Positions 21,615-59,192 are shown, numbered from the stretch's first letter. The stretch: DNA of 64,000 nt from Acidobacteriota bacterium (GCA_021788095.1 JAJYLB010000011.1:28593-92592), one strand, 5' to 3'. Program-made: numbers and translations. The notes: generated from the sequence alone by a model not told the origin.

Positions 21615-22412
21615 TCAGTTTGCCGCCTTCGAGTAAGCGAACTGCCGTTGGCGCTCGAACCAATTCAGTTGGTCGGTGAAGCGGCAGGCTTCGCCGACGA
21701 CGATCAGGATGGGGGCGCGAAGGCCTTCGTTGGCAACTTCCGCTTCGATCGTATCCAGCGTGGCGAGAACCGTGGTCTGCTCTTCCCCGCTCACGTTGCT
21801 GATGGCGGCCACCGGCCGGCTTCCGGGAAGGCCGGACTCGATCAACGCCGCCGCGATTTCCCCGAGCCACTTCCCGCCCATGAAGATCACCAGCGTATCC
21901 ACCCTCGCCGCCAGCTCGATCCAGCTAAGGTCGGGCGAACCGGGGCAACCCGCGCCATGGGCGGATACGAACGCCACCGAGGAGGAAACATCGCGGTGGG
22001 TCAGAGGAATGCCCGCATAGCTTGCGGCAGCCAAGGCCGCGGAGATGCCGGGAACGATCTCGCAGTCGATTCCCGCTTCCGCGCAGGCCAGGGCCTCCTC
22101 GCCGCCGCGCCCGAAGATCATCGGATCGCCGCCCTTCAAGCGCACGACGGTCTTCCCTTCCCGAGCCTTCGAAACCAGGAGCGAGTTGATCTCGTCCTGG
22201 CCGATGGAATGTTTCCCGCAGCGTTTGCCCACATAGATGCGTTCGGCGCGCAGCGGGGCATGGTCGAGGAGTCGGGGGCCGACGAGCGCGTCGTAGAGAA
22301 CCACGTCGGCGGCGCGCAAGGCATCGAGCCCGCGCACGGTGATCAGGTCCTCCGCACCAGGACCCGCCCCGACGAGGAACACCTTACCTGGGTGGTTTCC
22401 CCGCTCGCTCAT
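21615..22412 (-). CDS. cobA: uroporphyrinogen-III C-methyltransferase (SUMT)
   Basis: Motifs GKVFLVGAGPGAEDLITVRGL, VVLYDAL and VVRLKGGDPMIFGRGGEE. Confidence 0.9.
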   Translation of the reverse strand: MSERGNHPGKVFLVGAGPGAEDLITVRGLDALRAADVVLYDALVGPRLLDHAPLRAERIYVGKRCGKHSIGQDEINSLLVSKAREGKTVVRLKGGDPMIFGRGGEEALACAEAGIDCEIVPGISAALAAASYAGIPLTHRDVSSSVAFVSAHGAGCPGSPDLSWIELAARVDTLVIFMGGKWLGEIAAALIESGLPGSRPVAAISNVSGEEQTTVLATLDTIEAEVANEGLRAPILIVVGEACRFTDQLNWFERQRQFAYSKAAN

Positions 22413-22986
22413 GGGTACGCACTCCTTCCAGGAAATCTTCGAGCAGCTTCTTCCGCCCTGGGAGATCGCTCGGAATCTCGAATTTCAATTTCGGGCGGAG
22501 CAGCGCCAAGGCTTCCGTCAAGTCTGCCGCGTTTTCCGGTATCGCTTCGTCGAGCCACGCGCGTAGCCGGCCCGCCAGGAACGGACTCTGCCCTCCGGTG
22601 CCGATGGCGATGGCCAAATCTCCCCGTTCGACGACGGCGGGGGTATAGAAGTTCGAAAGGGCGGGATTGTCGACCACGTTGAGCAGAGCCCCGTGCCGCT
22701 CGGCTTCCTCCGCCACGGCGACTTGCACCGCGGGATCGCTGGTCGCCGCAATCACCACGAAGAATGCTTCGGATACGTCTCCCGGCTGGAAGGGGCGGCG
22801 AACCAGCTCGAGGGTGCCTTCCCGGGCCCACGCCTCGATTTCCGCGCCGACTTCGGGAGCGATGACGGTGACCAGGGCCCTGGCCCGAAGCAATTGCCCC
22901 GCGCGCTGTGTCGCGATGGCGCCGCCGCCTACCACGAGCGCCCGACGGCCGCTCAGTTTCAGAAAAAGCGGGAAAAGCTGGCTCAC
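22384..22986 (-). CDS. precorrin-2 dehydrogenase / sirohydrochlorin ferrochelatase (CysG N-terminal-type, SirC-like)
   Basis: FPLFLKLSGRRALVVGGGAIATQRAGQLL Rossmann motif. It overlaps cobA by 29 nt. Confidence 0.8.
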   Translation of the reverse strand: MSQLFPLFLKLSGRRALVVGGGAIATQRAGQLLRARALVTVIAPEVGAEIEAWAREGTLELVRRPFQPGDVSEAFFVVIAATSDPAVQVAVAEEAERHGALLNVVDNPALSNFYTPAVVERGDLAIAIGTGGQSPFLAGRLRAWLDEAIPENAADLTEALALLRPKLKFEIPSDLPGRKKLLEDFLEGVRTHERAGKPPR

Positions 22987-23036
22987 CGGCCACCTCGATC
23001 TGAAAGCTGTTGCATAACCTGTCTTCGCCCGCCCTC

Positions 23037-23091
23037 AGGGGCTAAAGCCCCTGATTCTCGGCCACGCTTACGGCACGGCTGAAGCCGTGCC
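23037..23091. repeat. hairpin repeats of the same family as at 2801-3076
   Basis: aggggCTAAAGcccct (23037-23052) and ggcacggcTGAAgccgtgcc (23072-23091), in the 248-nt gap between the cytidylate-kinase-like gene and the siroheme genes. Confidence 0.65.
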
Positions 23092-23234
23092 CTACAAAGA
23101 TCGCGGCCATCCAACGACTCCTAATACGCATGCGTCCCCAGGACAACCTTCACGCCGAAACTTGCTTTCGAGCATCGGCTTCAAGTTGCCATAGAGGATA
23201 GCGATCTTTGCCATTCGGCCTCCCGCCGCCGGCC

Positions 23235-24071
23235 TCAGTCCGGGAATTCCGGGAACCGGCGGAGGGTGACGTTCGCTTCCTTCACCCCTTCCACCGTTTG
23301 CGCGATCAGCCGGATATCGTCTTCGCTCGGCCCCACTTTCCGAATGAGAACGCCCGACGTCGCCATTTCGCCGAAGACTTCCACCTTGTCGCCGTCGGCT
23401 TTGACTTCGAACGAGACCGCACGCGACTTGACGTTGGCGGCGAGCGCGACTTTCACCCGGCAAGCCAGGGCGAAGTCGCCGAACTGTTTCCGGACCGTTT
23501 CCGTCGCCTCGTACGCCGGCAGCTTCACGACGGCGCCAATCAGGGTGCAGGCCGTCGGGATGGTGAAGTTCTTGAGATTGATGACCAAGTCGTAGTTTCT
23601 GGGGTCGCGCCAATCGAGTCCGTAGACGAATTTCGTCCACCGCACCCGCTCCTCGTCGAGCGCGGCGATCGACTCCTTCGCGGCGCTGTAATCGAGCCCT
23701 TTCCGGTTCATTAGCTCGCGAATGCGCATGGCCATCGGAGCGATCAGCCGGATGCGGAGCACGGCGGGAAGGTCGTCGAGAAGGAGATGGCCGGCGTGGC
23801 CGTGGTAGATGAGGTTGCCGCCCACGCAAGCGTCTGCCAGCGCGGATTCGAGGGCGACGAGGTAGATTCTTCGATCGGAGGTCATGCGCTCCCAAAACCG
23901 CGCGCTCTTCTCGATTTTGCCGCGCAGCACCTCCTCGGAAGCGCCCAGCTTCTCGGCGGCTTTGACGAGCACCTCGCGCGCCAAAGTGGGGTAACCAAGG
24001 TTCTGGGCCAGGCATTCGGCCAGGGCCATTCCTCCGCTCATCGAGCCGCGCGAAATCGTGATGATGGCCAT
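23235..24071 (-). CDS. cytidylate-kinase-like family protein (degenerate P-loop) with a C-terminal extension, paralog 1
   Basis: The internal ATG at 24071 lies 2 nt after the TSUP stop. The N-terminus MAIITISRGSMSGG lacks the Walker-A lysine. Other motifs: LIYHGHAGHLLL, LRIRLIAP, WTKFVYGLDWRDPRNYDLVINL, plus a ~90-aa extra C-terminal domain. Confidence 0.7.
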   Translation of the reverse strand: MAIITISRGSMSGGMALAECLAQNLGYPTLAREVLVKAAEKLGASEEVLRGKIEKSARFWERMTSDRRIYLVALESALADACVGGNLIYHGHAGHLLLDDLPAVLRIRLIAPMAMRIRELMNRKGLDYSAAKESIAALDEERVRWTKFVYGLDWRDPRNYDLVINLKNFTIPTACTLIGAVVKLPAYEATETVRKQFGDFALACRVKVALAANVKSRAVSFEVKADGDKVEVFGEMATSGVLIRKVGPSEDDIRLIAQTVEGVKEANVTLRRFPEFPD

Positions 24072-24073
24072 CC

Positions 24074-24910
24074 CTAGAGTCTCCTTGTGACGCCGCTGTA
24101 GATCATTTCCAGCGCCATGAGCAGGATCACCGCGCTGAAGAAGAGCCGCAGCGGCTTGGTAGGAACCCGCATGAGCAGCCGCGCGCCGCTGAAAGCGCCC
24201 AGGAACACGCCTAGCATCACCGGCATGGTCAACCCTGGATCGATAAACCCTTCGAACAGGTAGATACCGGCGCTGGCGGCCGCCGTAATCCCGATCATGA
24301 AATTGCTGGTGGTAGTGGATACTTTGTAAGGCAGGCGCATGAGTTGGTCCATGGCCAAAACCTTCACGGCGCCCGAGCCGATGCCGAGCAGGCCGGAGAG
24401 TGTGCCCGCTGCCAGCATCAACGAAAACCCGCCCGTCACATTGTATACCCGGTACGGTTTCCATCCCCCGACGACGGGATAGCGGGATTCCAAGCGGAGG
24501 CGGACGGCCAGCGGGTCGGAGGGCCGGTCGGTCTCCTCTTCCTCCTGGCGGCGAAAAGAGAGGTACGCCGAATAGATCAAAACGAGGCCAAAGACAATCG
24601 CAATCGTGGCGGCGTGAAGGATGCCCGCGACGATGGCGCCGAGGATGGCGCCCGCCGTCGCCGCCACCTGCAGGAACATGCCGATGCGCAGATTGGTGTA
24701 CCCCTCGTTGAGATAGGCGGAGGCCGCCCCCGACGACGTCGCGATCACCGAGATCAAAGAGGCGCCGACCGCATAGCGCAGGTTCACGTGGAAGAGCAGT
24801 ACGAGCATGGGAACCAGAATGACACCACCCCCCAGGCCCGTGAGCGCGCCGATCACCCCCGCGAGCAGGGATCCTAGAAACAGGAACGCGGTGAACTGCG
24901 TGACGTGCAT
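24074..24910 (-). CDS. TSUP (TauE/SafE) family anion permease, paralog 1
   Basis: Two 4-TM halves, with GALTGLGGGVILVPMLV and MRLPYKVSTTTSNFMIGITAAASAG. The conserved central loop is FRRQEEEETDRPSDPLAVRLRLESRYPVVGGW. Confidence 0.85.
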   Translation of the reverse strand: MHVTQFTAFLFLGSLLAGVIGALTGLGGGVILVPMLVLLFHVNLRYAVGASLISVIATSSGAASAYLNEGYTNLRIGMFLQVAATAGAILGAIVAGILHAATIAIVFGLVLIYSAYLSFRRQEEEETDRPSDPLAVRLRLESRYPVVGGWKPYRVYNVTGGFSLMLAAGTLSGLLGIGSGAVKVLAMDQLMRLPYKVSTTTSNFMIGITAAASAGIYLFEGFIDPGLTMPVMLGVFLGAFSGARLLMRVPTKPLRLFFSAVILLMALEMIYSGVTRRL

Positions 24911-24922: not shown

Positions 24923-25765
24923 TCACGCCGCCCTGCCAGATTCCTGCCCGCCGGCGAGGTGGATCGCGACCTTCTTCACGCCCTCCACCGTCATGGCCGC
25001 CTGCCGGATACGGGCTTCCTCCGGCCTGCGCAGCGGCGAGCCGGGTCCGAGGCGCGGAAGCTGCCAGACGATGTCCACTTGGCCATTCTCCGCGCGCACT
25101 TCGAACTCGAAGCAGCGAAGTTCGGAATCCCTGGCCAGAGCGAGTTGGATCCGGCAGAGGAACGCGAACGAGCGCAGACCCTTCTTCACGTTCTCCGTCA
25201 CGGCGTACGCCGGCAGCGCGATGACGGCCGACACCATGGCGCAAGCGGCTTCAATCGTCACGTCGCGCAGATGGATGACGAGGTCGTAGTTTTTGGGGTC
25301 GCGCCAGTCTACTCCGTAAACGAATTTCGTCCATTGGGCGCGTTCGCGGTCCACAAAATCGAGGTACTCGCGAGCGGCGTCGGGAGCCAGTCCCTGCCGT
25401 TTCACCAGCTCGCGGATGCGGGTTTGCCGGGGTGCGATCAGGCGCACCCGCAAGACGCCGGGCAGGCCCTTGAGCAGGAAATGGCCGGCGTTACCGTGAT
25501 AGATCAACTTGCCGGTGACCGAGCGGTCGGCCAGTGCCGACTGCAAAGCGAGGAGGTAGATTCGGCGGTCTTCCCGCAAGGTCTCTACCGCTCCCGAGGC
25601 CATCTGGATCTTTTCCCGCAAGATGTCTTCCGATATGCCGAGCGTCGCCGCCGCCTCCACCAGCACTTCACGCGCCAGGACGGGATAATGCAGCCGGGCG
25701 CCCAGGCAGCGGGCCAACTCTTCTCCTCCACTCATCGATCCGCGCGAAATGGTGACAATCGCCAT
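24923..25765 (-). CDS. cytidylate-kinase-like family protein (degenerate P-loop), paralog 2
   Basis: MAIVTISRGSMSGG, LIYHGNAGHFLL, LRVRLIAP, WTKFVYGVDWRDPKNYDLVIHL. It is colinear with paralog 1. Confidence 0.7.
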   Translation of the reverse strand: MAIVTISRGSMSGGEELARCLGARLHYPVLAREVLVEAAATLGISEDILREKIQMASGAVETLREDRRIYLLALQSALADRSVTGKLIYHGNAGHFLLKGLPGVLRVRLIAPRQTRIRELVKRQGLAPDAAREYLDFVDRERAQWTKFVYGVDWRDPKNYDLVIHLRDVTIEAACAMVSAVIALPAYAVTENVKKGLRSFAFLCRIQLALARDSELRCFEFEVRAENGQVDIVWQLPRLGPGSPLRRPEEARIRQAAMTVEGVKKVAIHLAGGQESGRAA

Positions 25766-25831: not shown

Positions 25832-26209
25832 TTATCCTCGCCCCGCGAAAAAGAGCGCATACGTCAGAAGTCCCAAGACCAGCGCCGTGATGATGACGAA
25901 ACTCTTGTCCCGGCTCAGGAGAAAGAGCAGGCCGGTTAACGCCACGCGGATCAGTTGCACCGCCACCAGGAAGATCAACCCGAGCTGAATCAGGCCCCTT
26001 CCCGACCCCCTCTTCATGTCGTCCCAAATCCCCGCGAGCGATCTCAGGTCGGAAGGCTCTCCCCGAAAGATTCGGTAATGAACCACGTCGGAGCCGTGGC
26101 GCCACAGAAAGATGGAACCACCCGCCAGAACCGTCACCGCCGAGGCCAATACCCCGACGAGCAGAACCATGCCGATCAGCTTTTCCATCCGGCGCATCAC
26201 CAGAGTCAT
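25832..26209 (-). CDS. DUF1634 small membrane protein
   Basis: 125 aa from ATG 26209, overlapping the TSUP stop in an ATGA motif. Four hydrophobic helices (MEKLIGMVLLVGVLASAVTVLAGG ... FVIITALVLGLLTYALFF). Confidence 0.65.
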   Translation of the reverse strand: MTLVMRRMEKLIGMVLLVGVLASAVTVLAGGSIFLWRHGSDVVHYRIFRGEPSDLRSLAGIWDDMKRGSGRGLIQLGLIFLVAVQLIRVALTGLLFLLSRDKSFVIITALVLGLLTYALFFAGRG

Positions 26210-27036
26210 CGCGTCGCACCCTTGTAGATCATCTCGAGAGCCATTAGCAGAACGATGGCGCTGAACAGAACCCGCAGCGGCTTGGCATTCACAAACATCA
26301 AAACCTTCGCCCCCACCACCGCCCCGCCGAACACCCCGAGCATCACGGGCAGCGTCAGGCCGGGATCGATGAAGCCGTCGTTGAGGTAAACGCCCGCGCT
26401 CGCCGCGGCCGTAATCCCGATCATGAAATTGCTGGTGGTGGTCGAGACCTTGTACGGAAGCCGCATGACCTGATCCATCGCCAGGACGTTGACCGCGCCG
26501 GAGCCGATTCCCAGCAGGCCGGACAACACCCCTGCGACGCTCATCAGCAGGAAAGAGGGAATCACGCGATACACCCGGTAACGCCGCCAGCCTCCCAAAA
26601 CGGGGTAACTGCTCTCGAGGCCGAGCCGGAGCGCCAGGCGGTCGGAAGGGCGATCCCTCTCGCTTTCTTCCTTCCGGCGAAAGGACAGGTAGCCCGAAAA
26701 CAAGAGGACGAGTCCGAAAACCATGAACAGCGCCGGCACGGGCACCACCGCCGCCAACAGCGCCCCTCCGATGCCCCCCGCGATACACGGCAGTTGCAGG
26801 AACATCCCCAACCGCAGGTTGGTGTAGCCCTCGCTCAAGTACGCGGCAGCCGCTCCGGACGACGTGGCGATGACCGCGATCAACGACGCTCCGGCGGCAT
26901 AGTGCATCTCCACGTGGAACACCAGGACGAGCATCGGGACGAGGATGATCCCCCCGCCCATGCCGGTCAGCGCGCCGACGGCTCCCGCCGCGCACGATCC
27001 CGCGGCCACCAGGAGCAAGAAAGGAGCCGTAGTCAT
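26206..27036 (-). CDS. TSUP (TauE/SafE) family anion permease, paralog 2
   Basis: Alignable without gaps to paralogs 1 and 3, and shares MRLPYKVSTTTSNFMIGITAAASAG and the DRPSDRLALRLGLESSYPVLGGW loop. Confidence 0.85.
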   Translation of the reverse strand: MTTAPFLLLVAAGSCAAGAVGALTGMGGGIILVPMLVLVFHVEMHYAAGASLIAVIATSSGAAAAYLSEGYTNLRLGMFLQLPCIAGGIGGALLAAVVPVPALFMVFGLVLLFSGYLSFRRKEESERDRPSDRLALRLGLESSYPVLGGWRRYRVYRVIPSFLLMSVAGVLSGLLGIGSGAVNVLAMDQVMRLPYKVSTTTSNFMIGITAAASAGVYLNDGFIDPGLTLPVMLGVFGGAVVGAKVLMFVNAKPLRVLFSAIVLLMALEMIYKGATR

Positions 27037-27082: not shown

Positions 27083-27922
27083 TCATGGCAGCCAGCGCAG
27101 CACGCCCTTGACTACCATCTCGATCGCCATTGCCAGCACGAGCGTGCTGAACAGGAATCGCAAGAGCTTCGCCCGCACCACCAACAGGAGCCGCGCCCCC
27201 GCGATCGCGCCTGCGAAGATGCCCAGCACCGCCGCCATCGTGAGCACGGGATCGATGTAGCCGTGGCGAACGTAAATCCCCACGCTCGCGGCGGCGGTGA
27301 TGCCGATCATGAAGTTGCTCGTGGTGGTCGACACCTTGTACGGGAGCCGCATCACCTGATCCATCACCAGCACATTTACCGCGCCCGCGCCGATTCCGAG
27401 CAAACCCGAAATGATTCCCGCCGCTCCCATCAGCAGGGAACCGGGAACGACGCGGCGCACCTTGTAAAACTTCCAGCCCCCCAGCACGGGATAGCTGCTC
27501 TCCATCCCCAGACGGATCGCCAAGGGATCGGAGGGCCGATCGGGCTCCTCTTCTTCCCTCCGGCGAAAGGACAGGTAGCTCGAGTAGAGCAGGGTGAACC
27601 CGAAAACCATCATGAGCGCCGGCACGGGCACGTAAGCCGCGAGCATGGCGCCCGCGATTCCGCCCACGATCGAGGTGAGCTGGAGGAACATCGCAACCCG
27701 CAGGTTGGTGTAACCCTGGTGCAGAAAGGTGACGGTGGCCGCGGTCGAGGTCATCGTGACCGCGATCAGGGACGCCCCCGCCGCGTTGTGCAGGTTGACG
27801 TGCAGGAGCAGCACGAGGACGGGAACCAGGAGGATCCCTCCTCCTTCGCCCGTCAGCGCCCCCACCATCCCCGCGGCCGCCCCGCCCACAGCCACCAGGA
27901 ATAAGAACAGCCATGCTGCCAT
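27083..27922 (-). CDS. TSUP (TauE/SafE) family anion permease, paralog 3
   Basis: Same architecture, with the DRPSDPLAIRLGMESSYPVLGGW loop and MRLPYKVSTTTSNFMIGITAAASVG. Confidence 0.85.
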   Translation of the reverse strand: MAAWLFLFLVAVGGAAAGMVGALTGEGGGILLVPVLVLLLHVNLHNAAGASLIAVTMTSTAATVTFLHQGYTNLRVAMFLQLTSIVGGIAGAMLAAYVPVPALMMVFGFTLLYSSYLSFRRREEEEPDRPSDPLAIRLGMESSYPVLGGWKFYKVRRVVPGSLLMGAAGIISGLLGIGAGAVNVLVMDQVMRLPYKVSTTTSNFMIGITAAASVGIYVRHGYIDPVLTMAAVLGIFAGAIAGARLLLVVRAKLLRFLFSTLVLAMAIEMVVKGVLRWLP

Positions 27923-28085: not shown

Positions 28086-29348
28086 CTAGCGCGCTCCGCC
28101 CGTGGCGGCGTTGTGAAGTTTCACCTCGACCTTCTCTTCCAAGTGGTCGTAATACTCCTTCAAGACGGCGATGACTTCCGGCTTGGAGAACTCCGCCGGC
28201 ACCGGCTTGCCTTCGCTCATCAGCTTGCGCAGCAAGGTCCCCGAGAGCAGCAGCCGGGCGCCGCCCTTGTAGTTGCCGTTGTCGTCGATCACCGCCTTGC
28301 TTTCGTGCGGGCAGGTTTTCATCGAGGCCATTGAGCCGCACTCGTAGCAGTAGAACGTCCAGTCCATCGAGAGCGGTTGAATGGCCAGGGCGCCGGCCGG
28401 CACTTCGCCAAAGATCTTCTGGGCGTCGAACGGGCCGTAATAATTCCCTACGCCGGCATGGTCGCGGCCGACGATCAGGTGGGAGCAGCCGTAGTTCTGG
28501 CGGAAGACGGCGTGCAGAAGCGCCTCGCGCGGCCCCGCGTAGCGCATCTCCATCGGGTACCCGCCCTGGATCACGCGGTCGCGGCGAAAGTACTTGTTCA
28601 CCAGGGCGTCGATCGCGCGCACGCGCACGTCCGCCGGAATATCCCCCGGCTTGAGTTTGCCCAGCAGTTGATGGATGTAGACGCCGTCGCACACCTCGAT
28701 CGCGATCCACGCCAGGTACGCATGGGAGTTGTGCATGGGGTTGCGGAGCTGCAAGGCCGCCACCGTGCTCCAGCCGCGCTCCTCGAAGAGCTTGCGCGCT
28801 TCCGCCGGCCGCTGGTAGATACCCGCGAATTCCTTCGGGAAGAAGGATTCGGACACCACCCTCACCGGGCCCGCCAGATTCACCGGGCCCTGCTCCATCA
28901 CCTTCTGCACGCCGGGATGGTTGGGGTCTTTGGTTTTGAAGACTTCCTTGCACTCGCGGTCTTTGTCGATCTTGTACTTTTCGGTCACCTTCATGGTGCC
29001 CATGAATTCATTCGTCTCGCTGTCCCAAAGCGCTACTTCCTCGCCCAGCGCCACCGCCGCGGCTAGGGCCTCGGTCGCGGAAAGCGTGATGGGAATGGGC
29101 CAGAACGCGCCTTTGCGGGAGGCGAGGCTCAGGGTGTCGCAAGTCGATTTCCAGTCCTCGGCGCCCATGAACCCTTCGAGCGGCGTGAATGCCCCGATGC
29201 CCATCATGAGCAGATCGCCGGTCTCCCGGCTCGTCATGGGAACTTTCTTGAGTTTGGCGGCGCGCTGGGTCTCCTCCCGGGCGGCGGCGGGATCGAGCAA
29301 CAGCGGCTTCAATTCCGGACTTCCATGCGGCGGTACGAGTTGGCTCAT
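28086..29348 (-). CDS. sat: sulfate adenylyltransferase (ATP sulfurylase)
   Basis: Motifs [21 protein letters not shown] and the N-terminal PUA-like domain. About 420 aa, as in dissimilatory Sat. Confidence 0.95.
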
Positions 29349-34450: not shown

Positions 34451-34501
34451 CCTGGCGAGCCGCGAAGCCCCTGCCCGCGGGCGTATCCGGCATCGTGGCC
34501 G

Positions 34502-50457: not shown

Positions 50458-52713
50458 CTAGAAGCCCTTATAGGGGTTCGGCCCCATTTCCCGAATGCGG
50501 CCCGCGAAGGCATCGATCGCCGCCGGCAGCCGCCGGTATTCGTCCAGCGAAACCTCGATCGTTTCGATCCGCCCCGGCTCCAGTTGCAGCCGTTCGAGCG
50601 TCTCCTTCACGTTCTCCAGGCGGCGGCTGGCGATCTCGCTGCCCTTGGCGAAGTGGCACTGGTAGTCGTCGCCGTGCTTGCAGCCGGCGAGCATCACGCC
50701 GTCGATGCCGCGCGACAGGGCGTCGGCAATCCACACCACGTTCAGCGAGCCCAGGCAGCGCAGGGGAATCACCCGCACCGAGGCGTCGTACCGCCCGCGC
50801 CCCATCGCGATGGCGTCGAGCGCCGGATAGGCGTCGTTCTCGCACAGAAAGAGGAGGATCCGGGGCTTCTCCTCTTCCTCGCCCGGCACGTCGATCGCTT
50901 TGATCATTCCCGCGATCGTGTCCACCGAATAGTTCTTGAACGAGATGATGCGTTCCGGGCAGGCGCCCATGCACACCCCGCAGCGCCGGCACCGCGTGGG
51001 ATTGAACTTCGGCGTGCCCTTTTCGTCCTCGTCGATCGCCCCGAAGGGGCACTCCACCGTGCACCGCTTGCACTGCGTGCATCGCTGCAGGAGGAAACTC
51101 GGATAGGACCCATCGCCGGCGCGGGGATGAACGGCTTGCCCGCGCGACGCCATTTCAACGCATTGGATGGCTTTCATCGCCGCGCCCAGGCCGTCCTCTT
51201 CCGCCGCCGAAGCGTCCATCGGCGCGTGGACCGCGCCCGCGGCGTAGATGCCGGTCCGCAACGTTTCATAGGGGAAGCAGATGAAGTTCGAGCCGGGGAA
51301 TCCGTCTTTCAGCAGCGGAAGCTCCGGTCCCTGGCGATACGCCAAGTGGAGCGCGCCACCCGGATCGACCGGCCACCCGGCGGCCTTCGCCCCCGCTCCC
51401 GCTTCGCTTGCGGCTTGCCCCGCGTCGCCGCTCGAGGCTCCCTGCGCTGGCGTCGAGCTTCCGCCGTTCTTGCCATTCGGCGCGTTGGGAACGAAACCCG
51501 TCGCCAGCACCACCAAATCCGCCGGCACGCGAATCGTCTCGCCGAGCGAGCTGTTCTTGACCTCGACGGCGAGATTGTCTCCCGTGTGACGGGTGACGCT
51601 CGATACTTCGCCGCGCAGCAGGAACGTCGCGGGATGGTTCTGCACCTCGGCGAAGTAACGTTCGTATTGCCCCGTAACGATGATGTCCCTGTGAAGGATG
51701 GAAACCTTCACGCGCGGATCGCGCCGGTGAATCAAGTCGGTCTGCTGGAGCGTGGTCAGGCAACACACCGCCGAGCAGTACGGCAGATGGTTCTTGTCCC
51801 GCGAGCCCGCGCATTGGATGAACGCGACGCTTTCCGCCGGCTTGCCGTCCGACGGCCGAACCGGCGGGCCGGCCCCCAGCATCGTCTCGAGCTGGTCGCC
51901 GGTGATGACGTTTGGAGAAGCGCCGTAGCCGAGCTGGCCCAGCCGCGCCGGATCGTAAGGCGTCCAGCCGGTGGCCATGACGATGGCGCCGACGCGATGG
52001 GAGAAGTGTTGGCCACCGCTTTCGATCGTGACTTCGAACGCTCCCGGTTGGCCCTCGGTTCGGGCGACGCGTGCGCCGGCGTGCGCGGTGATCCTGGGAT
52101 GGACGGCGAGTCTGGTGATGTTCCGGGCCAAGCCGCGCTCTGGGAGTTCGGTGTGGGGCGTGCCGTGGGGAAAATCGTTCCGCGTGGCTCCGAGACGCCC
52201 GCCCAGCCCCGCTTCCTTCTCCACCAGAACGACTTCGTAGCCGGCGTCGGCCGCTCCCAAAGCCGCCGCGATCCCCGCCGTGCCGCCTCCGACCACCAGA
52301 ATCGCGCGGGAAACCTCGGCAACGCAGGGCTCGAGCGGCTCCATCTTCTGCGCCTTCACCACGCCCATGCGCAAGTAGTCCTCGGCAAGCCGCTGCGTCT
52401 CTTCTTCCCGCGGCGCATGGCTCCAAGCGACGTGCTCGCGCAGATTGACGCGCTCGACGACCAGCCGGGGATCGAAGGTGAACGCCGCCGATTTCATCCG
52501 CGGCGAACACGCCGCGATCACCACCGCATCCACCGTTTTCTCCGTGACGTCTTTCCGGATCGCCGAAAGCCCGGCTTCGCTGCACAGGAAGGGATGCACG
52601 CGGCAAACCGGAACCTTGCATTCTTCTCGGGCGACGCCGGCCAGGCGCTCTACGTCGAGCGATTCCCCGATCGAGCACCCGCTGCAGATGTAGGCTCCGA
52701 CGCTCTTACTCAT
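50458..52713 (-). CDS. qmoB: QmoB (HdrA-like flavoprotein with ferredoxin and MvhD-like domains)
   Basis: Motifs [36 protein letters not shown] and the C-terminal MvhD-like [14 protein letters not shown]. Confidence 0.9.
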
Positions 52714-53980
52714 GGGGAGCGCTCCCCGCGACGTGCGGCAAGGCCGCGAGCGCCGCTCCCGTCGCGTCCCGGACGCTGGCGGCCACTTCCTCGGGCCGCT
52801 TCACGCACCCGGCGGCGTAGAGCCCTGGCGTTCCGTTCACCACGAACCCGAACTCGTCTCGCGCAAACGCGGCGGGAAGCCCCTCCGACCGCGGCACCAT
52901 CCCCGTGGCCAGCACGACGAGACCGAATCTGGCCGTCGATTTCCTTCCCGGGGGCACGTCCTCGGCGGTGACGAGCAGGTCCTGCGTGCCGGGGTCTTCT
53001 TCGATCGCGCCTACTTTCCCTCTCACCAGCCTCAGGCGATCGCTCGCTGCCGCCTTGGCGCGGAACTCTTCGAGCAGCCCCGGGGTGCGCAGGTCGATGT
53101 AGAAAATCGCGATCTCGGTTTCGGGGTAGAGGGCGTGGAGGTAGGTGCTGTGCTTCAGGGAGGCCGTGCAGCATACGGTCGAGCAATACGCCAGGTGGTT
53201 TTCGTCACGCGACCCCGCGCATTGCACGAACGCAACGCTCGCCGGGGCCTGTCCGTCCGATGGCCGCAGGATCTTGCCGCCCGTGGGGCCGTCGGGAGCC
53301 GCCATCCGCTCGAGCGCGACGTTCGTGACGACGTTCTCGAATTTGCCGTAGCCGAAACGGTCCAGCCGCGCCGCGTCGTAAGGCGCCCAGCCCGTCGCCG
53401 CGATCGCCGCGGCCACGCGAAACGTCCGGATCTCCGTCCGCTGGTAGAGATCGATGGCCCCGTAGCGGCACGCATCCACGCACCTGCCGCAACCCTCCGC
53501 GCAAGCCGCTCGATCGATGGCGTACGCCCCGGGAAATGCCATCGCCCGCGGAAAGTAGATGGCCTTGCTCTTCCCCAGCCCCAAGTTGAAATCATCGGCT
53601 CGTTCGGCGGGGCAAACGTCCACGCAAGCCCCGCACAGCGTGCAGGCGCCGGTGACGTATCGCGGCCGTACGCGAATCCTGGCCTCGAAGTTTCCGGCCG
53701 TCCCCGAAAGCGATTCGAGTACCGCTTCCGTCAAGACGGTGATCCGCGGATTCTGCTTCAGGCGCCGGAAGTTGATCTCGAAGCCGCAGGTGGGAGGGCA
53801 GAGCTTGGGGAAATAGAGGTGCATCGCCGCCGCCCTCCCTCCCAGGAACGGCGAACGCTCGATGAGAAGGACGCTGGCGCCGGCTTCGGCCGCCTCGAGC
53901 GCGGCCGTCACTCCTGCTATTCCACCGCCAACGACCAGAATCCTACTTCGCTCCAGGTCTAGGAAACTCCCACTGCTCAT
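52706..53980 (-). CDS. qmoA: QmoA (HdrA-like flavoprotein)
   Basis: Motifs ILVVGGGIAGVTAALEAAEAG and CTLCGACVDVCP. It overlaps qmoB by 8 nt. Confidence 0.9.
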   Translation of the reverse strand: MSSGSFLDLERSRILVVGGGIAGVTAALEAAEAGASVLLIERSPFLGGRAAAMHLYFPKLCPPTCGFEINFRRLKQNPRITVLTEAVLESLSGTAGNFEARIRVRPRYVTGACTLCGACVDVCPAERADDFNLGLGKSKAIYFPRAMAFPGAYAIDRAACAEGCGRCVDACRYGAIDLYQRTEIRTFRVAAAIAATGWAPYDAARLDRFGYGKFENVVTNVALERMAAPDGPTGGKILRPSDGQAPASVAFVQCAGSRDENHLAYCSTVCCTASLKHSTYLHALYPETEIAIFYIDLRTPGLLEEFRAKAAASDRLRLVRGKVGAIEEDPGTQDLLVTAEDVPPGRKSTARFGLVVLATGMVPRSEGLPAAFARDEFGFVVNGTPGLYAAGCVKRPEEVAASVRDATGAALAALPHVAGSAPHE

Positions 53981-53986: not shown

Positions 53987-54817
53987 TCAGCGTTCCAGCG
54001 CCGCCTGCGCCCGAGCCGGGTCGGGCTGGCGCCATGCTAGCGGCGGCGCGTCCTTCCTCAGCCGCATGGTCTGTTCCTGGAACAGGCAGAACCGCAGCCA
54101 TTCCATGGCGAATTCCAGCAACTCCTCGTCGTCCGATCGCAGCGCTTCCACCCTCTCCTCGTGCACCTCGAAAAACTTGAAGAAACGCGTCTCGAAGAGG
54201 AACCGGCGGAAGCGGTCCAAATCGAAGCAGGCCATCAGGTACATCGAGACCTGTTCCGCCGATAGCGGCTCCTCCTTCCGCCAGAATTCGTTCAGCATGA
54301 GCTGCTGGAAGGAAGCGCCCATCATCTCGAAGGCGTCGATCCCTTGCTCGGAAATCCATTCCTGCACGGTGCGGCTTCCCCTGCCGTGCCCGTGGCAGAA
54401 CTTTTCCTGAAGGAGGAAATAGAAGCCGCGCTCGGTCGGGGTCGGGTGGTCCGGTTCGGCTCGGCCCAGCGGGTACATGCGGCACGCCCAGGGCCGGTCC
54501 TTATAGACCGAGCAGCCCTTCTCCGTAACGAAGGGGCAGCGCTTGTCTTCCTCTCCCATCCGCAGCAGCACGATGGGCAGCTTCTTGTTCCGCGTGCAGG
54601 AAAGCACGGTATGGCGGCTCAGAAATTCACTCGAGCTGATCCCCAGTGCGCGTTTCATCCGCAGCGCGTCGTAGGGGGTAAGAACGATGGAAACATCGCG
54701 GCAGCAGTGCGTGTAGCAGTCCAGACTCCCTTCGCAGCGAAAGTCCAGGATGTCGCCCGCGCCCAAGCGGGCCGGCGCCGCTTCGCTTCTCGCCCGCTCG
54801 GCGATTCCTTCAGGCAT
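53987..54817 (-). CDS. YkgJ-family Cys-cluster (putative zinc/iron-chelating) protein
   Basis: Motifs CYTHCCRD and CPFVTEKGCSVYKDRPWACRMYP are characteristic of the CxxCxxCC/YkgJ family. A ~130-aa C-terminal extension follows. Confidence 0.65.
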   Translation of the reverse strand: MPEGIAERARSEAAPARLGAGDILDFRCEGSLDCYTHCCRDVSIVLTPYDALRMKRALGISSSEFLSRHTVLSCTRNKKLPIVLLRMGEEDKRCPFVTEKGCSVYKDRPWACRMYPLGRAEPDHPTPTERGFYFLLQEKFCHGHGRGSRTVQEWISEQGIDAFEMMGASFQQLMLNEFWRKEEPLSAEQVSMYLMACFDLDRFRRFLFETRFFKFFEVHEERVEALRSDDEELLEFAMEWLRFCLFQEQTMRLRKDAPPLAWRQPDPARAQAALER

Positions 54818-54820: not shown

Positions 54821-55096
54821 TCATGCCTCCTCGCCCAGAATCCCGTCGCGCAGGGCGTCTCGCGACCACACCGGAAGCGGGCCCGAGTCCCCGCTCAGGG
54901 GATCGAGGCGATGCCGGTACGACGCTCTCATCTGGTAATGGCTCTCCATCCATTCCCATCCCCGGACGAAATACGGGCATTCGTCGTTGAAGCAGACGTA
55001 CTGGAATTCGCCGCTCCAGCTGCTTAGCTCCGGAGTCGCCCATCGGCTCATCGGCTTTTGGCAATGAGGGCACGAGGCTCTCGCCCGCTCGCTCAT
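54821..55096 (-). CDS. 91-aa Cys4 zinc-ribbon-like protein
   Basis: The internal ATG at 55096 gives [19 protein letters not shown]...[11 protein letters not shown] (CxxC...CxxxC). Its stop lies 3 nt before the YkgJ start. Confidence 0.5.
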
Positions 55097-55185
55097 GGAA
55101 ATCCTGCGCGTCAGCGAGGCTCGCCCGCCGCGGCGGGCGAGCCTGCCCGTGACGGCGCCGGCGCACGAGCGCCGGCGCGCAAACG

Positions 55186-57084
55186 CTACGCAAAAATCTG
55201 ATGGATGGGTCGCTTCAACATCTGCCAATGGTCGGTGCCGGGATCGTACCGGCAGTTGGCGAAGACGTGCCAATGCTCCTCGTCCATCTTGGGTTTGTCC
55301 GACCGGAAGTAATAGCCCGGCCAGCGTGTTTCCTCGCGGAAGAGCATCGTGCGTACGTGGGCTTCGGCCTGCCACATCCGGTGGATGTTTTCCCAGCACC
55401 GCATGAGTTCGTGCAGATTGGCCGCCGCCAGCTTCGTCGAGTCTTCCTTGAGGTAGTCCAGCAATTCGACCGCGCGATCGAGCTGGGCCTTGTTGGTGGT
55501 GAACTGCGAGGTCACGCCGCCCGCGTATTCGTCCATGATCTTTTGCAGGCGGAACATGAACATCCGCGGCTTCACGTAGTGCGGATTGATCTCCGGATCG
55601 GTCGTCGCGCCCGCGTGCGCTTCGTAAAGCGCCAAGGGCGCCAGGATCTCCTTGGCTTGCGCATCGAGCGCCTGCGGATCGATTCGCGGCGGGTGGTTGT
55701 GATCCACGATGAACTGGATCGCCGCTTTCGCCGCGATGCGCCCCTCGGTGCAGGAGCCCGAGGAGAACTTATGGCTGGAAGCTCCCGAGGCGTCTCCGGC
55801 GCAGAACAGCCCCGCCACCGTTGACATGTTCGGGTAGCCCCAGAAATATTCGCCCTTGGTCTGCTCGTTTTGCAGGTCCTCCGGGCCGCTCACCCAGGCT
55901 CCCGACGCCCCCGAATGCGAGCCGATGAAGTACGGTTCGGCGGCGGCGATTTCCGAGCTCTTCTCCTCGGGTTGCACGTTGGTTCCGGCCCACAAAATGG
56001 CCTGGGAAATCGTCATGTCGAGGAAGTCTTCCCAAGCCTCCGATTCCAGCTCCTTCATCTTCTTCTTGTGTTCCTTCGGATCGTTCTTGTAGGACTCGGC
56101 GATCTTTTGGATGGCTTCCTCGGTCCGCATGTAGATCGGCCCTTTGCCTTCCATCACGTCGAGCATCCCCAGGTAGTTCCGCAGGTTCGCGGGAACGGGC
56201 TTCACTTTGCCGTAGGGCAGCCAGTTCTCCAGCTCCGCTTGCCGCTCCACCATGTAGTTGCCGCCCGTCGAGTTCGTCGCGCGCGACTTGAACAGCAGGA
56301 ACCACGCGCCCACCGGCCCGTAAGCGTCCTTGAAGCGTACGGGGATGAACCGCACTTCCTGGCAGGTCATTTCCGCGCCCGCCTTCATCGTGAAATAGGC
56401 CGAGGAACCCGAGTTCCACGGCGGATACCATGCGCGGCCCATGCCTTCGCCGGAACTGCGCGGTTTGAAGACGTGTACCGCGCCGCCCATCGCCGCCAGG
56501 GTCGCTTTCGCCATGAAGAAATACAGCTTGTTCTCGCGGACCGAGAAACCCACCGCGCCCGCGCACCGGTCCCCATCCATCAGCGGGCCGACGATGAAGA
56601 CCCGCTCGAAGATCTGGCCATTGCCGCTGCCCAGCAGCGCGTTCTTCGCCGCCTCCGCCACGATCACCTTGTACGATTCGCCGTTGATCATCAGTTGCCA
56701 GCGGCCCTCGTGGACGTACTTGCCTTCCGCGTCCTTCCAGATGGGCAAGCCCCATTTCTCGAACAGGTGCACGGTCGAGTCGACGTGGCGGGCGATATTC
56801 GCCACCAAGTCCTCGCGCGTGATGCCCATCAGGTCGTTGCGCACGTAGGTCACGTAGTCCTTGACCGTATTGGCGCCGTCCTTGAGTCCCACGTACTGGT
56901 TGATCGCGGAAAGCCCCATGGCCACTGCGCCGGAACGGTCCACCGCCGCCTTGTCCACCAGGGTTACCCGCAAACCGTTCTCCTTGGCCCAATAGGCTGC
57001 CTCGACGGCCGCTCCACAGGCGGCCATCCCGCCTCCCAGGATCAATAGGTCGGTTTCGACGATCACTTTTTCGAACTCAGGCAT
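55186..57084 (-). CDS. aprA: adenylylsulfate (APS) reductase alpha subunit
   Basis: FAD motif [17 protein letters not shown]. It is a ~630-aa fumarate-reductase-fold flavoprotein and overlaps aprB by 8 nt. Confidence 0.95.
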
Positions 57085-57532
57085 GTGGCGCCTCCTTCTT
57101 CAGCGTGAAGACCTCCGGCAGCCCCAGGGAGCCGGGCTCGGTGAAGAGGGCCGGGCTGCTCAGATCCTTGGAACTCGAATATCCGCCATCGGGAACCGCC
57201 GCTCCTTCCGGCGTTGTGCGGATGGGGAACTTGAACCGCTTCAGGGTGCCGTTGCGGAATTTCACCGTCCACAGAATCGAGTCGGTGGACCGCAGCGGCG
57301 TCACGCTCGCTCCCAAGGGAACGAAATCGGCGTAGCCGCGGACTTCAATGGCTTGTGTCGGGCAGATCTTCACGCAGTTGTAGCATTCCCAACACATCGA
57401 AACGTCGCGGTTGTACGCTTTCATCGTCTCCCTGTCCAAGACCATCAGGTCGTTGGGACAGATGTACTGGCAGGCGGTCTTGTCGAGCGCCTTGCATCCG
57501 TCGCATTTCTCTGGATTCACGTAACTGGGCAT
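57077..57532 (-). CDS. aprB: adenylylsulfate (APS) reductase beta subunit
   Basis: The ATG at 57532 is preceded by GCGAGGAGGCGCA. MPSYVNPEKCDGCKALDKTACQYICPNDLM, CWECYNCVKICP and the AprB C-terminal tail. Confidence 0.95.
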   Translation of the reverse strand: MPSYVNPEKCDGCKALDKTACQYICPNDLMVLDRETMKAYNRDVSMCWECYNCVKICPTQAIEVRGYADFVPLGASVTPLRSTDSILWTVKFRNGTLKRFKFPIRTTPEGAAVPDGGYSSSKDLSSPALFTEPGSLGLPEVFTLKKEAPHA

Positions 57533-57641
57533 TGCGCCTCCTCGCAAAAAAGCCTTTTGACAGGTAGCCTCGCGAGCGTCCGCAGGGCTGGCTCTCCGGA
57601 CGCCCGCGCCGTCTTTCCGGGTCCCAGGAAGATTGCCTCGG

Positions 57642-59192
57642 TCACCAGGCCGCCTCCGAGGCCAAACTCAGTCGGCGCGTCCCCGCTCCTCGCCGCGCCG
57701 CGTGCGCCCGCGCGGCGCGCAGCATTCCCTTCGCCCATTTCGGCGTCGCGGCCGCGTGAACGTGGGCGTAGCTCGCCCAAACGTTGTTCCGAAGCACGCC
57801 GTCGCGCCCGTCGAATGTCCCCACGCCCCGCCGCACCGCGCAGGCAGTCTCGGGCGCCGCCGGGCAGGAAAGCAGCCGGGAATAATGAAATTCGTGCGCG
57901 CGAATCGTCGTCCCTACCGGATAGAAAGGATTGGCGCGGTCGACCAATAACTCCACGTACCCGTGCCCTTGCGGCGTGCGGAAGACCTCCGCCTCGTAGG
58001 GGAGTACGCCCGCCATGGGAAACCTCTTGCCCTCCCGGCGAATCGCCTCCGCAAGGAACATCAATCCGCCGCATTCGGCGTAGATGGGCAGGCCCTCGAG
58101 CGCGCGCTGCCGCACCGACGACCGCAGCCCCGCGTTCGCCGTGAGCCGCGCCGCGTGCGTTTCCGGAAACCCGCCGCCGATGTACATCGCGTCCACGTCT
58201 TCGGGCAGGCTCGCCGCCGAAAGCGCGGGAATCGGCTCGAGTTGCGCCCCTGCATTCTCCAGGGCCTCCAGGTTGTCCGGGTAATAAAAGGTGAAAGGAG
58301 AACCTTCCAGGTAGGCAATCTTGAGTCCCGCTCCGGCGTCCTCGGCGGAAGGACGCTCGCCGAAGTATTCCACCGCGGGCGCGCTCGCCGCGATTTCCAG
58401 TATCCTCGCCGCATCCAGCCGGGAACCTGCCAGCGCTAGCAACTCGCTCCGCAGCTCCTCGAGCCGATCGTGCTCTTCCGGAGTGACCAAACCCAGATGA
58501 CGGTTCGAGGGAAGCGCCCCTGCTTCCCGCTTCGGTAGCGCCCCCAGCACGGGGATGCCGCAGATCGATTCCACGGCCTTCCGCAGAATCGCTTCCTGGC
58601 GCGGGTTGGCGACGCGGTTGAGAATCACTCCCCGAATCGATAGGTGGCGATCGAGCGTCTGGCATCCCAGCACGAGCGCCGCAACCGTCCGAGTCGCCTT
58701 CGTGGCGTCTACCACCAGCGCCACTGGCGCCTTCAAGAGTTTCGCCAGTTCCGCCGTGCTGTGCGTTCCGATTTCGTCGACGCCGTCGTACAAACCGCGG
58801 TTTCCTTCCACCACGTTGAGGCCATCGGCTCGGGCGTGGGTCGCGAACAACCGCGTCGCCGTCTTCCCACCCATCAGAAAAGTGTCCAGGTTCCGCGCCG
58901 CTTTCCCCGATGCCCAGCTCAGCCAGGCCGCGTCGATGTAATCGGGACCCTTCTTGAACGCTCGGGTCGGTATCCCCTGCTGCCGTGCCAGCAGAAGCAG
59001 AGCCAGCGATACGAGGGTCTTGCCGGAGTCTCCGGAGAGACCGGCAATCACAATCCTGGGCGCTCGATTCGCGATAGACACCAGCCTCTGGACCTCACCT
59101 CGCAAGCCATCATGAGGAAGCGAGTGCCTGAAGACAATTCGGCAGGTCCCATATTTCCTGAAGTTTTGCTCACTAAGAGCCCTTAAGGGCAT
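57642..59192 (-). CDS. dsrN: DsrN (cobyrinic acid a,c-diamide synthase-like, siroheme amidase)
   Basis: CbiA-type N-terminus IVIAGLSGDSGKTLVSLALL and the C-terminal glutamine amidotransferase domain (YAECGGLMFL). The start is uncertain and the first ~45 aa may not be translated. Confidence 0.8.
   Translation of the reverse strand: MPLRALSEQNFRKYGTCRIVFRHSLPHDGLRGEVQRLVSIANRAPRIVIAGLSGDSGKTLVSLALLLLARQQGIPTRAFKKGPDYIDAAWLSWASGKAARNLDTFLMGGKTATRLFATHARADGLNVVEGNRGLYDGVDEIGTHSTAELAKLLKAPVALVVDATKATRTVAALVLGCQTLDRHLSIRGVILNRVANPRQEAILRKAVESICGIPVLGALPKREAGALPSNRHLGLVTPEEHDRLEELRSELLALAGSRLDAARILEIAASAPAVEYFGERPSAEDAGAGLKIAYLEGSPFTFYYPDNLEALENAGAQLEPIPALSAASLPEDVDAMYIGGGFPETHAARLTANAGLRSSVRQRALEGLPIYAECGGLMFLAEAIRREGKRFPMAGVLPYEAEVFRTPQGHGYVELLVDRANPFYPVGTTIRAHEFHYSRLLSCPAAPETACAVRRGVGTFDGRDGVLRNNVWASYAHVHAAATPKWAKGMLRAARAHAARRGAGTRRLSLASEAAW

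Follow-up and report, generated by a model that had tools for sequence, protein, structure and literature searches.

A 37-gene sulfate-respiration cluster on an acidobacterial contig, with a layout shared among Dsr-carrying Acidobacteriota

A 64,000-nt stretch of DNA from Acidobacteriota bacterium (GCA_021788095.1, JAJYLB010000011.1:28593-92592; hereafter the window) carries, at positions 21615-59192, genes for dissimilatory sulfate/sulfite metabolism packed side by side on one strand. The locus raises the question of whether this block is a transferable island, an unusually consolidated regulon, or simply the customary arrangement of its lineage. The first two possibilities had been put forward in an earlier reading made from the nucleotide sequence without database searches (the sequence-only reading). 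Our analysis points to the third: the block is probably a chromosomal sulfate-respiration cluster typical of Dsr-carrying Terriglobia (Acidobacteriota). Its arrangement is ordinary for the lineage; dozens of uncultured soil and peat Acidobacteriota share the layout, and the window is a further example of it.

Raw lists of open reading frames (ORFs) are noisy here owing to the G+C content of 62-68% throughout the window; frames were chosen by codon-position GC, and start codons were checked by hand. This GC3-guided ORF analysis and the independent gene calls of the corresponding ENA contig agree on 37 genes in an unbroken minus-strand run, as the sequence-only reading had it, and neither yields a credible plus-strand gene inside the block. 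The boundary at 59192 belongs to the longest dsrN ORF (516 aa), whereas the gene caller starts dsrN at 59081 (479 aa). Start and stop codons overlap at 11 junctions and the majority of gaps are shorter than 50 nt; the spacer of 26 nt between the qmoC stop and the dsrA start is exactly as first described. With gene-caller starts, the biggest spacers measure 248 nt (second PF13189 gene/cysG-N), 163 nt (sat/TauE), 114 nt (RR2/hmcF), 109 nt (dsrN/aprB) and 89 nt (aprA/Ogr-like gene); the 248, 163 and 109 nt had been listed correctly, and the 114-nt gap overlooked. The genes are given in Table 1 in their 5' to 3' order, from dsrN to cobA.

Protein identities were assigned by NCBIfam and Pfam profile scans against curated cut-offs, which AprA, AprB, DsrA, DsrB, DsrC, DsrM, DsrK, DsrO, DsrP, Sat and CobA exceed. 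The core gene names proposed earlier are backed by these profiles, while DsrD finds no support from hidden Markov models or PDB structures, the Hmc-like subunits stay below cut-off, and five genes had been left unnamed (the Ogr/Delta-like, PF03692 and DUF1634 genes and two PF13189 genes). QmoA and QmoB give HdrA-like matches without a dedicated model, and their position and conservation in relatives support a QmoABC assignment; the name DsrN is used because of genomic context and Hausmann et al. 2018. DsrC ends in ...GACKLAGLPKPTGCV (pattern C-x10-C-V), so that both functional C-terminal cysteines are present. The small dsrJ was initially concealed within an over-long dsrO ORF, and dsrT lies directly upstream of dsrM, a placement described in PMC10504309. 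Essentially all of the pathway is encoded on one strand, but calling it whole is slightly generous, because family scans of the cluster and window found no pyrophosphatase and no SulP, DASS or CysP transporter.

Table 1. Features of the block, in the direction of transcription (HK, histidine kinase; RR, receiver protein; MFE, minimum free energy; APS, adenosine 5'-phosphosulfate; Tat, twin-arginine translocation)
Feature	Position	Strand	Evidence
dsrN, CobB/CbiA-type amidase, siroheme amidase homologue	57642..59192	-	NCBIfam CobB 407 bits, cut-off 254; Pfam CbiA, GATase_3
aprB, APS reductase beta subunit	57077..57547	-	TIGR02060 203.5 bits, cut-off 135.65
aprA, APS reductase alpha subunit	55186..57084	-	TIGR02061 879.6 bits, cut-off 641.75
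Pair of GC-rich stem-loops immediately past aprA, candidate attenuator or mRNA stabiliser	55097..55185	-	MFE -63.6 kcal/mol, z -4.69
91-aa Ogr/Delta-like zinc-finger protein	54821..55096	-	PF04606, E 7e-12; syntenic in 31/62 loci
276-aa CxxCxxCC protein, function unassigned	53987..54817	-	PF03692, E 4e-9; syntenic in relatives
qmoA, HdrA-like flavoprotein	52706..53980	-	HdrA-family matches; position between aprA and qmoB
qmoB, HdrA-like with C-terminal FlpD/MvhD-like domain	50458..52713	-	HdrA2, VhuD matches; Pfam FlpD
qmoC, membrane subunit	49310..50455	-	NF038018 end to end, 220.8 bits, below cut-off 300
dsrA	48063..49283	-	TIGR02064 580.5 bits, cut-off 392.85
dsrB	46959..48038	-	TIGR02066 504.5 bits, cut-off 341.5
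82-aa DsrD-like ORF	46701..46949	-	62-84% identical in relatives, placed after dsrB or beside dsrN
Short DsrL-like iron-sulfur flavoprotein, ~400 aa, without NAD(P)H-binding domain	45433..46641	-	Fer4_20, FAD Rossmann fold, C-terminal ferredoxin domain
dsrC	45100..45417	-	TIGR03342 116 bits, cut-off 53.5
dsrT, RsbRD_N domain	44615..45091	-	PF14361; immediately upstream of dsrM
dsrM	43594..44601	-	NF038037 491.9 bits, cut-off 300
dsrK	41982..43601	-	NF045796 733.6 bits, cut-off 400; CCG motif
dsrJ, triheme cytochrome c	41594..41989	-	Three CxxCH motifs and N-terminal membrane helix
dsrO, Tat signal	40821..41597	-	NF045797 291.5 bits, cut-off 200; N-terminus MKITRKEFLK...
dsrP	39509..40810	-	NF045798 423.5 bits, cut-off 350
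dsrM2, NarI-like paralogue	38524..39465	-	PF02665; homologues adjoin dsrK2 in relatives
dsrK2, DsrK paralogue	36920..38527	-	NF045796 317.6 bits, below cut-off 400; CCG motif
PAS histidine kinase (HK)	35421..36920	-	NCBIfam histidine-kinase matches; Pfam PAS_4, HATPase_c
Receiver-domain protein RR1	34900..35424	-	DVU0259/DivK-family match
Receiver-only protein RR2	34502..34903	-	DVU0259/DivK-family match
HmcF/TmcB/DsrK-like CCG iron-sulfur protein (hmcF)	32873..34450 (gene-caller start 34387)	-	DsrK 286, TmcB 197, HmcF 186 bits (HmcF cut-off 750), all below cut-off
HmcE/TmcC-like membrane subunit (hmcE)	32103..32876	-	TmcC 133.9, HmcE 131.2 bits (HmcE cut-off 275), below cut-off
HmcB/HybA-like four-cluster ferredoxin, no Tat signal (hmcB)	31324..32106	-	HmcB 233 bits, cut-off 420; alignment from profile position 38
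HmcC/NrfD-like membrane subunit with fused C-terminal hexaheme cytochrome c domain (hmcC)	29395..31323	-	HmcC 302 bits, cut-off 550; Pfam NrfD, Cytochrom_CIII; six CxxCH
sat, ATP sulfurylase	28086..29348	-	NF003166 474 bits, cut-off 387
TauE/TSUP permease 1	27083..27922	-	PF01925, E 6e-46
TauE/TSUP permease 2	26206..27036	-	PF01925, E 6e-47
DUF1634 membrane protein	25832..26209	-	PF07843, E 3e-22
PF13189 cytidylate-kinase-like protein 1	24923..25765	-	PF13189, E 4e-35
TauE/TSUP permease 3	24074..24910	-	PF01925, E 6e-48
PF13189 cytidylate-kinase-like protein 2	23235..24071	-	PF13189, E 4e-36
Largest gap: frameshifted CGGC-domain gene remnant (~23124-23211) and double-hairpin repeat (23031-23091)	22987..23234	-	tblastn, repeat comparison
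cysG N-terminal-type precorrin-2 dehydrogenase/ferrochelatase	22384..22986	-	TIGR01470 147.7 bits, cut-off 62.3; dsrV in Hausmann 2018
cobA, uroporphyrinogen-III C-methyltransferase	21615..22412	-	NF004790 315 bits, cut-off 198

Such consolidation on a contig from a metagenome assembly could in principle be an artefact that fused separate loci, an explanation we regard as extremely improbable. Apart from this provenance, no sign supporting it was found. The window's proteins are found on contigs of 100,746 bp at NCBI and 91,652 bp at ENA. The ENA contig (ERZ27233565) is collinear with the window over 13235-59283 at 99.98-99.995% identity, the Logan assembly of run SRR13170411 matches 31636-36861 at 100% identity, and Logan assembly data from further sequencing are 100% identical over 23071-24311. 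The second of these matches spans the junction between the two-component system and hmcF, which is specific to the window, and the same junctions as in the window are otherwise present in many other metagenome-assembled genomes (MAGs). A chimeric contig, which the sequence-only reading had named as a danger to its claim, is thus contradicted by independent and collinear assemblies.

To place the block among its relatives, a DsrA-anchored scan with one genome per GTDB species returned 592 relatives, and the best 79 loci of these 592 were compared by tblastn with the 37 window proteins; the counts use loci with enough sequence, and taxon labels are those of the NCBI records. Acidobacteriota is the label on nearly all of these 79 loci, with DsrA identities of 73-91%; the labels include Terriglobia, Candidatus Acidiferrales, Bryobacterales, Candidatus Sulfopaludibacter and others, and a few read Binatia or delta proteobacterium. 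The apr-qmo genes lie immediately upstream of dsrA on the same strand in 33 of the 62 loci with sufficient upstream sequence, and 31 of those 33 carry the exact string aprB-aprA-Ogr-CxxC-qmoABC. Downstream, the order dsrB-L-C-T-M-K-J-O-P is kept in 57 of 64 loci. Loci labelled Acidobacteriaceae mostly have a second layout of their own (aprAB inverted, then dsrM2K2, inverted cysG-N and dsrAB); the layout therefore tracks the taxon label. Two independent metagenome contigs are as consolidated as the window, with small permutations: one reads dsrABD-L-C-T-MKJOP-hmcFEBC-sat-TauE-DUF1634-CK... (L081), the other ...dsrMKJOP-sat-hmcFEBC-TauE-DUF1634-CK-TauE-CK-cysGN-cobA (L086), where CK is the cytidylate-kinase-like gene.

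The arrangement is also in print. Hausmann et al. 2018 (PMC6018796) report seven peat Acidobacteria MAGs with this gene set, and the parts of that source drawn on here place the SbA2 genes all on one scaffold. In its Table S2a the SbA2 tags run from dsrN (380058) through sat (57), dsrM2 (56), dsrK2 (55), aprB (53), aprA (52), qmoA (48), qmoB (47), qmoC (46), dsrA (45), dsrL (41) and dsrT (38) to dsrV (29), and SbA3 has a matching run, including the qmoC-dsrA adjacency. From these consecutive tags it follows, as far as the table entries go, that the all-in-one layout, with qmoC next to dsrA, was already published. The sequence-only reading was right to see a consolidated co-directional cluster on an acidobacterial contig, but not to regard the arrangement as unusual: that order is found in roughly half of the recovered acidobacterial loci and has been known since 2018, which is largely what that reading had itself said would overturn it.

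The two nearest genomes, 'Acidobacteria bacterium FK1.bin65' (GCA_021832085.1) and 'Ca. Acidiferrales bacterium Bin_79' (GCA_046704165.1), follow the window's order from dsrN to cobA, with identities of 91% for DsrA, 89% for AprA, 85% for DsrK and 81-84% for HmcF. Both read dsrN-aprBA-Ogr-CxxC-qmoABC-dsrABD-(150-aa ORF)-dsrL(553 aa)-dsrC-T-MKJOP-hmcFEBC-sat, followed by the window's TSUP module; in FK1.bin65 this module is succeeded by an intact CGGC-domain gene, cysG-N and cobA, whereas the CGGC-domain gene of the window has decayed. The five-gene insert dsrM2K2-HK-RR-RR that the window has between dsrP and hmcF is missing from these genomes; the dsrP-dsrM2 junction is common to the window and another MAG (L005). 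They also have the 553-aa DsrL and the extra 150-aa ORF after dsrD, where the window has a short DsrL and no such ORF. Beyond the block, an extracytoplasmic function (ECF) sigma factor lies upstream of dsrN in the nearest genomes as against a divergent kinase and LuxR pair in the window, and a hydrolase and AsmA lie downstream as against VapBC, PerR and KatG. In two relatives' loci (L167 7719-9913; L168 7906-9902) the co-directional ECF sigma factor upstream of dsrN is accompanied by a divergent Usp gene; the corresponding region of the window (59446-63942, plus strand) encodes a divergent PAS/GAF histidine kinase, a LuxR-type regulator and then a Usp homologue (47% identity).

Some parts seem to have been exchanged among relatives, namely long and short DsrL, two QmoC types, and a dsrM2K2 plus two-component cassette that is present or absent. 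QmoC of the relatives (L002-L080) falls into two classes with respect to the window protein, one at 63-83% and the other at just 29-35% identity, in an otherwise identical gene order, which suggests subunit replacement. The block consists of modules (dsrN; aprBA, two genes and qmoABC; dsrABD-L-C-T-MKJOP; dsrM2K2; hmcFEBC with HK-RR-RR; sat; TSUP; cysG-N/cobA) that are passed on within the lineage and reshuffled from one relative to another.

Several points weigh against reading the block as an inherited sulfate-respiration cluster divided into several transcription units. Synteny with the two nearest genomes stops at both block ends, and a block mobile as a unit would look alike. MAGs labelled Binatia or delta proteobacterium (L008, L011) have the same 20-gene order as the acidobacterial loci. 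Promoter and terminator consensus scans over the block gave the same counts as shuffled sequence and are uninformative on units. DsrL homologues were first tied to sulfur oxidation, the DsrD assignment is not statistically supported here, and the direction of the pathway is not readable from sequence.

The break in synteny bears first on the idea of a transferable 'plug-in' island for sulfur respiration, moving as a unit and acquired horizontally in this lineage, which we consider improbable. The comparison of composition with the flanks, which the sequence-only reading had proposed, revealed no shift: the tetranucleotide distance between block and flanks is 0.0126, against 0.0135 between the halves of the block and 0.019 between those of the left flank, and GC is uniform at 0.63-0.66 across block and flanks. 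The window contains no tRNA (ARAGORN), no repeat pair was found bordering the block, and family scans of block and flanks detected no integrase, transposase or conjugation genes. The nearest relatives of every protein tested are acidobacterial, and arrangement types follow taxon labels. What speaks for an island, besides the synteny break, is a VapBC pair abutting cobA, an IS200-type Y1 transposase within the TSUP module of a relative (L170), and the Binatia- and delta-labelled MAGs with the same order, together with related modules on a 748-kb Binataceae contig. Between genomes at ~70-90% protein identity, however, flank synteny would be lost in any case, and at such divergence the difference in flanks is weak island evidence; the Binatia and delta labels are those of MAG records only. 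In its recent form, the transferable island suggested earlier is supported neither by composition nor by border features or mobility genes.

The genes of the flanks themselves are ordinary. The left flank encodes an ABC (ATP-binding cassette) permease, a phosphoadenosine phosphosulfate (PAPS) reductase of assimilatory type (1705-2415, minus strand), an alpha-galactosidase, an enolase-superfamily protein, a major facilitator superfamily (MFS) transporter, a radical SAM (S-adenosylmethionine) protein, a Ser/Thr kinase and proline dehydrogenase. Immediately beside cobA (17720-21383, minus strand) are the VapBC toxin-antitoxin pair, a PerR/Fur regulator and the catalase-peroxidase KatG, so that oxidative-stress genes stand next to an anaerobic respiration cluster. 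The other flank holds the PAS/GAF kinase, LuxR regulator and Usp genes.

MAGs labelled Candidatus Binatia or delta proteobacterium have the apr-qmo-dsr order as in Acidobacteriota; the loci concerned, the Binataceae contig included, are L008, L011, L029 and L174. Between L008 and L011 the identity of DsrAB is 90.6%, and to acidobacterial sequences it is 83-84%. The 748-kb Binataceae contig carries dsrM2K2, TauE, three PF13189 genes, cobA and an inverted dsrN. These copies represent either inter-phylum transfer or mislabelled bins; together with the border data they are compatible with old block transfers, and do not mark the window's block as a recent island. Movement of the apr-qmo-dsr core, or of the entire block, in one piece between distant lineages, Acidobacteriota and Binatia included, without recognisable mobility genes strikes us as a minor possibility, somewhat less remote than an island acquired horizontally in this lineage. 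It would fit the end of synteny at the block borders, the 20-gene order of the Binatia- and delta-labelled MAGs and the apparent exchange of parts among relatives. If true, it would mean a self-sufficient respiration module spreading without such genes.

Within an inherited cluster, the genes are most likely organised as several co-directional transcription units and not as one operon, a view for which the stem-loop after aprA, the spacers, the decayed-gene gap with its hairpins and the modular shuffling all argue. A strong stem-loop occupies the same position after aprA in 32 of 37 relatives (L002-L080), differing in sequence and ending in a U-tract in some, and is a candidate attenuator or transcript stabiliser that may set aprBA apart from qmo. 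The dsrN-aprB spacer, 109 nt in the window, measures 225-256 nt in relatives. Another conserved stem-loop, after sat, was seen in only 7 of 12 relatives, and we make no claim for it.

The largest gap bears the scar of a lost gene: tblastn with the intact 117-aa CGGC-domain gene of a relative (L169, 10931-11284) matches it in two frames (E 2.7e-5). Beside this remnant lies a double-hairpin element of ~75 nt that occurs in two copies, at 23031-23091 (minus strand) and 63174-63234 (plus strand), its hairpins joined by GTAAGCG; the copies differ by a compensatory G/C swap in the second stem. No Rfam family matches the element, the relatives' loci yielded no copy of it, and an Rfam scan of the window at gathering thresholds gave no match.

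A single giant operon of 37 genes, read from one promoter upstream of dsrN, would fit the shared strand, the 11 overlapping junctions and the predominance of gaps below 50 nt. It is nevertheless very unlikely, given the gaps of 248, 163, 114, 109 and 89 nt, the positionally conserved post-aprA stem-loop with its U-tracts in some relatives, the longer dsrN-aprB spacers there, the two-component system inside the block, the decay in the 248-nt gap, and the fact that modules are separate or reordered in relatives.

What the cluster would do can be proposed from the functions of its families. Sat would convert sulfate to APS, and AprBA would reduce APS to sulfite with electrons delivered via QmoABC. 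DsrAB with DsrC would turn sulfite into the DsrC trisulfide, from which DsrMKJOP would release sulfide at the membrane. CobA, the CysG-N-type enzyme and DsrN would make siroheme and then amidate it. By way of DsrM2K2 and the Hmc/Tmc-like complex, which has a hexaheme cytochrome fused to it, a DsrK-like catalytic subunit may be reached through extra routes from the periplasm or the quinone pool; the genes for TauE, DUF1634 and PF13189 proteins are candidates for sulfate/sulfite transport; and the kinase with its two receiver proteins could regulate the Hmc-like module or its neighbours.

A reductive direction is favoured, though not proven, by the DsrA type, the DsrD-like gene and the lack of dsrEFH and sox genes in the window. 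The opposite course, with the same enzymes serving sulfur oxidation or disproportionation, appears unlikely. A DsrL homologue is present and the KatG/PerR pair adjoins the block, both of which would suit it, and the possibility was raised for the same gene set in the text of Hausmann et al. 2018 (PMC6018796) considered here. DsrA is, however, nearest to reductive-type enzymes: in the PDB it matches best with the reductive DsrA of A. fulgidus and D. vulgaris (E 1e-160 to 1e-167), in a comparison that offered no oxidative-type structure for contrast. The window has a DsrD-like gene and no dsrEFH, sox or sqr gene; DsrL-2C and DsrD beside reductive DsrAB were taken as a sign of reduction by Diao et al. 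2023 (PMC10591310); and the window's DsrL is without the NAD(P)H-binding domain required for electron transfer to NAD+.

The DsrD-like ORF owes its name to position, size, topology and prior literature. It has no Pfam match and, by phmmer or profile, no match to PDB 1UCR; hhalign against 1UCR gave the expected register at a non-significant E of 0.58. A single-sequence AF2 (AlphaFold 2) model has a winged-helix-like H-H-H-E-E topology (pLDDT, the predicted local distance difference test, 66), and the best Foldseek matches are winged-helix proteins with non-significant E values above 2.

A DsrL homologue had been recognised from sequence, and it proves to be a ~400-aa form without the NAD(P)H-binding domain. 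It keeps the N-terminal two-[4Fe-4S] domain (Fer4_20), the first dinucleotide-binding motif (NAD_binding_8/DAO) and the C-terminal ferredoxin domain (4Fe-4S). Aligned with the 553-aa proteins of the nearest relatives, it is missing ~150 aa, including the second Rossmann motif GGGDTAID and YAGGD, and PDB matches to Nfn and GltD proteins end near residue 250. Seven short forms among the loci make up one clade, and further ~400-aa co-linear representatives exist in several Acidobacteriota loci; a table footnote in Hausmann et al. 2018 (PMC6018796) gives a short DsrL of 396 aa in SbA5 and 413 aa in SbA4. Given the monophyly, the other ~400-aa forms and these published lengths, we reject a one-off deletion or pseudogene. 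With the NAD(P)H-binding Rossmann domain absent, the protein does not qualify as an NAD(P)H:acceptor oxidoreductase. The short DsrL can stand in for the full-length form within an otherwise identical cluster, and it makes the electron route to DsrAB in these bacteria a testable question. The ORF of ~150 aa between dsrD and dsrL in the two nearest genomes (L161 1953-2405; L164 1980-2429), which is absent from the window, has no Pfam match.

Among the accessory modules, the four Hmc-like subunits all lie below curated cut-offs (Table 1). No separate genes for a 16-heme HmcA or for HmcD are present; instead, the NrfD-type subunit ends in a fused domain that has six CxxCH motifs. On metagenome contigs anchored on hmcF, hmcFEBC followed by HK-RR-RR is a widespread seven-gene module. 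In most of these loci (L082-L160) HK-RR-RR comes after hmcFEBC, often with no dsr genes within 10 kb; unlike in most of them, the kinase and receiver genes of the window precede hmcFEBC (29395-36920, minus strand). A search of the accessible literature turned up no relevant report of an Hmc/Tmc-like complex from Acidobacteria, which is not proof of novelty. As for the TSUP genes, Marietou 2018 proposes TSUP/CysZ-type transport candidates and TSUP genes near sat and apr in Desulfosporosinus; a new transporter hypothesis based on TSUP genes beside sat was accordingly dropped. In one relative (L170, 6821-7198) an IS200/IS605-type Y1 transposase sits inside the TauE-DUF1634-PF13189 module, and the hmc, TSUP and siroheme genes are detached from dsr.

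The window thus offers a clean, long and independently reproduced reference layout, and adds no new principle. It shows what accompanies the core: an Hmc/Tmc-like complex with a kinase and two receivers, TauE/DUF1634/PF13189 genes, siroheme genes, and two genes between aprA and qmoA. Of lesser note are the DsrL that has no NAD(P)H-binding domain, the remains of a decayed gene in the 248-nt gap, and the recurrence of the gene order in Binatia-labelled MAGs. Soil and peat Dsr-carrying Acidobacteriota are believed to be drivers of cryptic sulfur cycling and to curb wetland methane production.

With the model sulfate reducers Desulfovibrio vulgaris and Archaeoglobus fulgidus, the cluster has the Sat, AprBA, DsrAB, DsrC and DsrMKJOP families in common, along with probable QmoABC and a DsrD-like protein. 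To our knowledge, neither model organism has a DsrL, and in their Hmc and Tmc complexes the multiheme cytochrome subunits are separate. There the sulfate-reduction genes are spread over several separate loci (see also PMC10504309), and the contrast drawn earlier with such scattered genes was a fair one. Consecutive dsrABDNCTMKJOP clusters occur in several bacterial lineages (Neukirchen et al. 2023, PMC10504309); the window differs from them in that dsrN stands at the head, dsrL is an insertion, and the block extends to apr-qmo, sat, transport and siroheme genes. Within the phylum, Candidatus Sulfomarinibacter (Thermoanaerobaculia; Flieder et al. 2021, PMC8528874) has the full pathway, with DsrL-2, DsrD and all dsr genes on one contig; it is marine and belongs to another acidobacteriotal class, and the portions of its description consulted report no fusion of apr-qmo-sat to dsr. 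Later surveys, in the sections used here, treat Dsr-carrying Acidobacteriota as an established group (PMC8528874, PMC10591310, PMC10504309).

The peat MAGs of Hausmann et al. 2018 are compared here through the parts of that source already named, whose text names no Hmc-like complex, TSUP/DUF1634/PF13189 genes or internal two-component system as cluster members. In SbA2, dsrN is separated from aprB by sat and dsrM2K2, whereas in the window dsrM2K2 comes after dsrP and sat after the Hmc-like module. In the tabulated entries the likenesses are extensive: qmoC (SBA2_380046) adjoins dsrA (380045), as in the window, and tags 49-51 are left between aprA and qmoA, where the window has its Ogr-like and CxxCxxCC genes, which are probably some of the 'syntenic genes of unknown function' of that study. 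In both SbA2 and SbA3, as in the window, dsrN heads the cluster, a dsrL-dsrC pair follows dsrAB(D), dsrT precedes dsrMKJOP, and the dsrM2K2 paralogues and the precorrin-2 dehydrogenase-like dsrV lie within the cluster.

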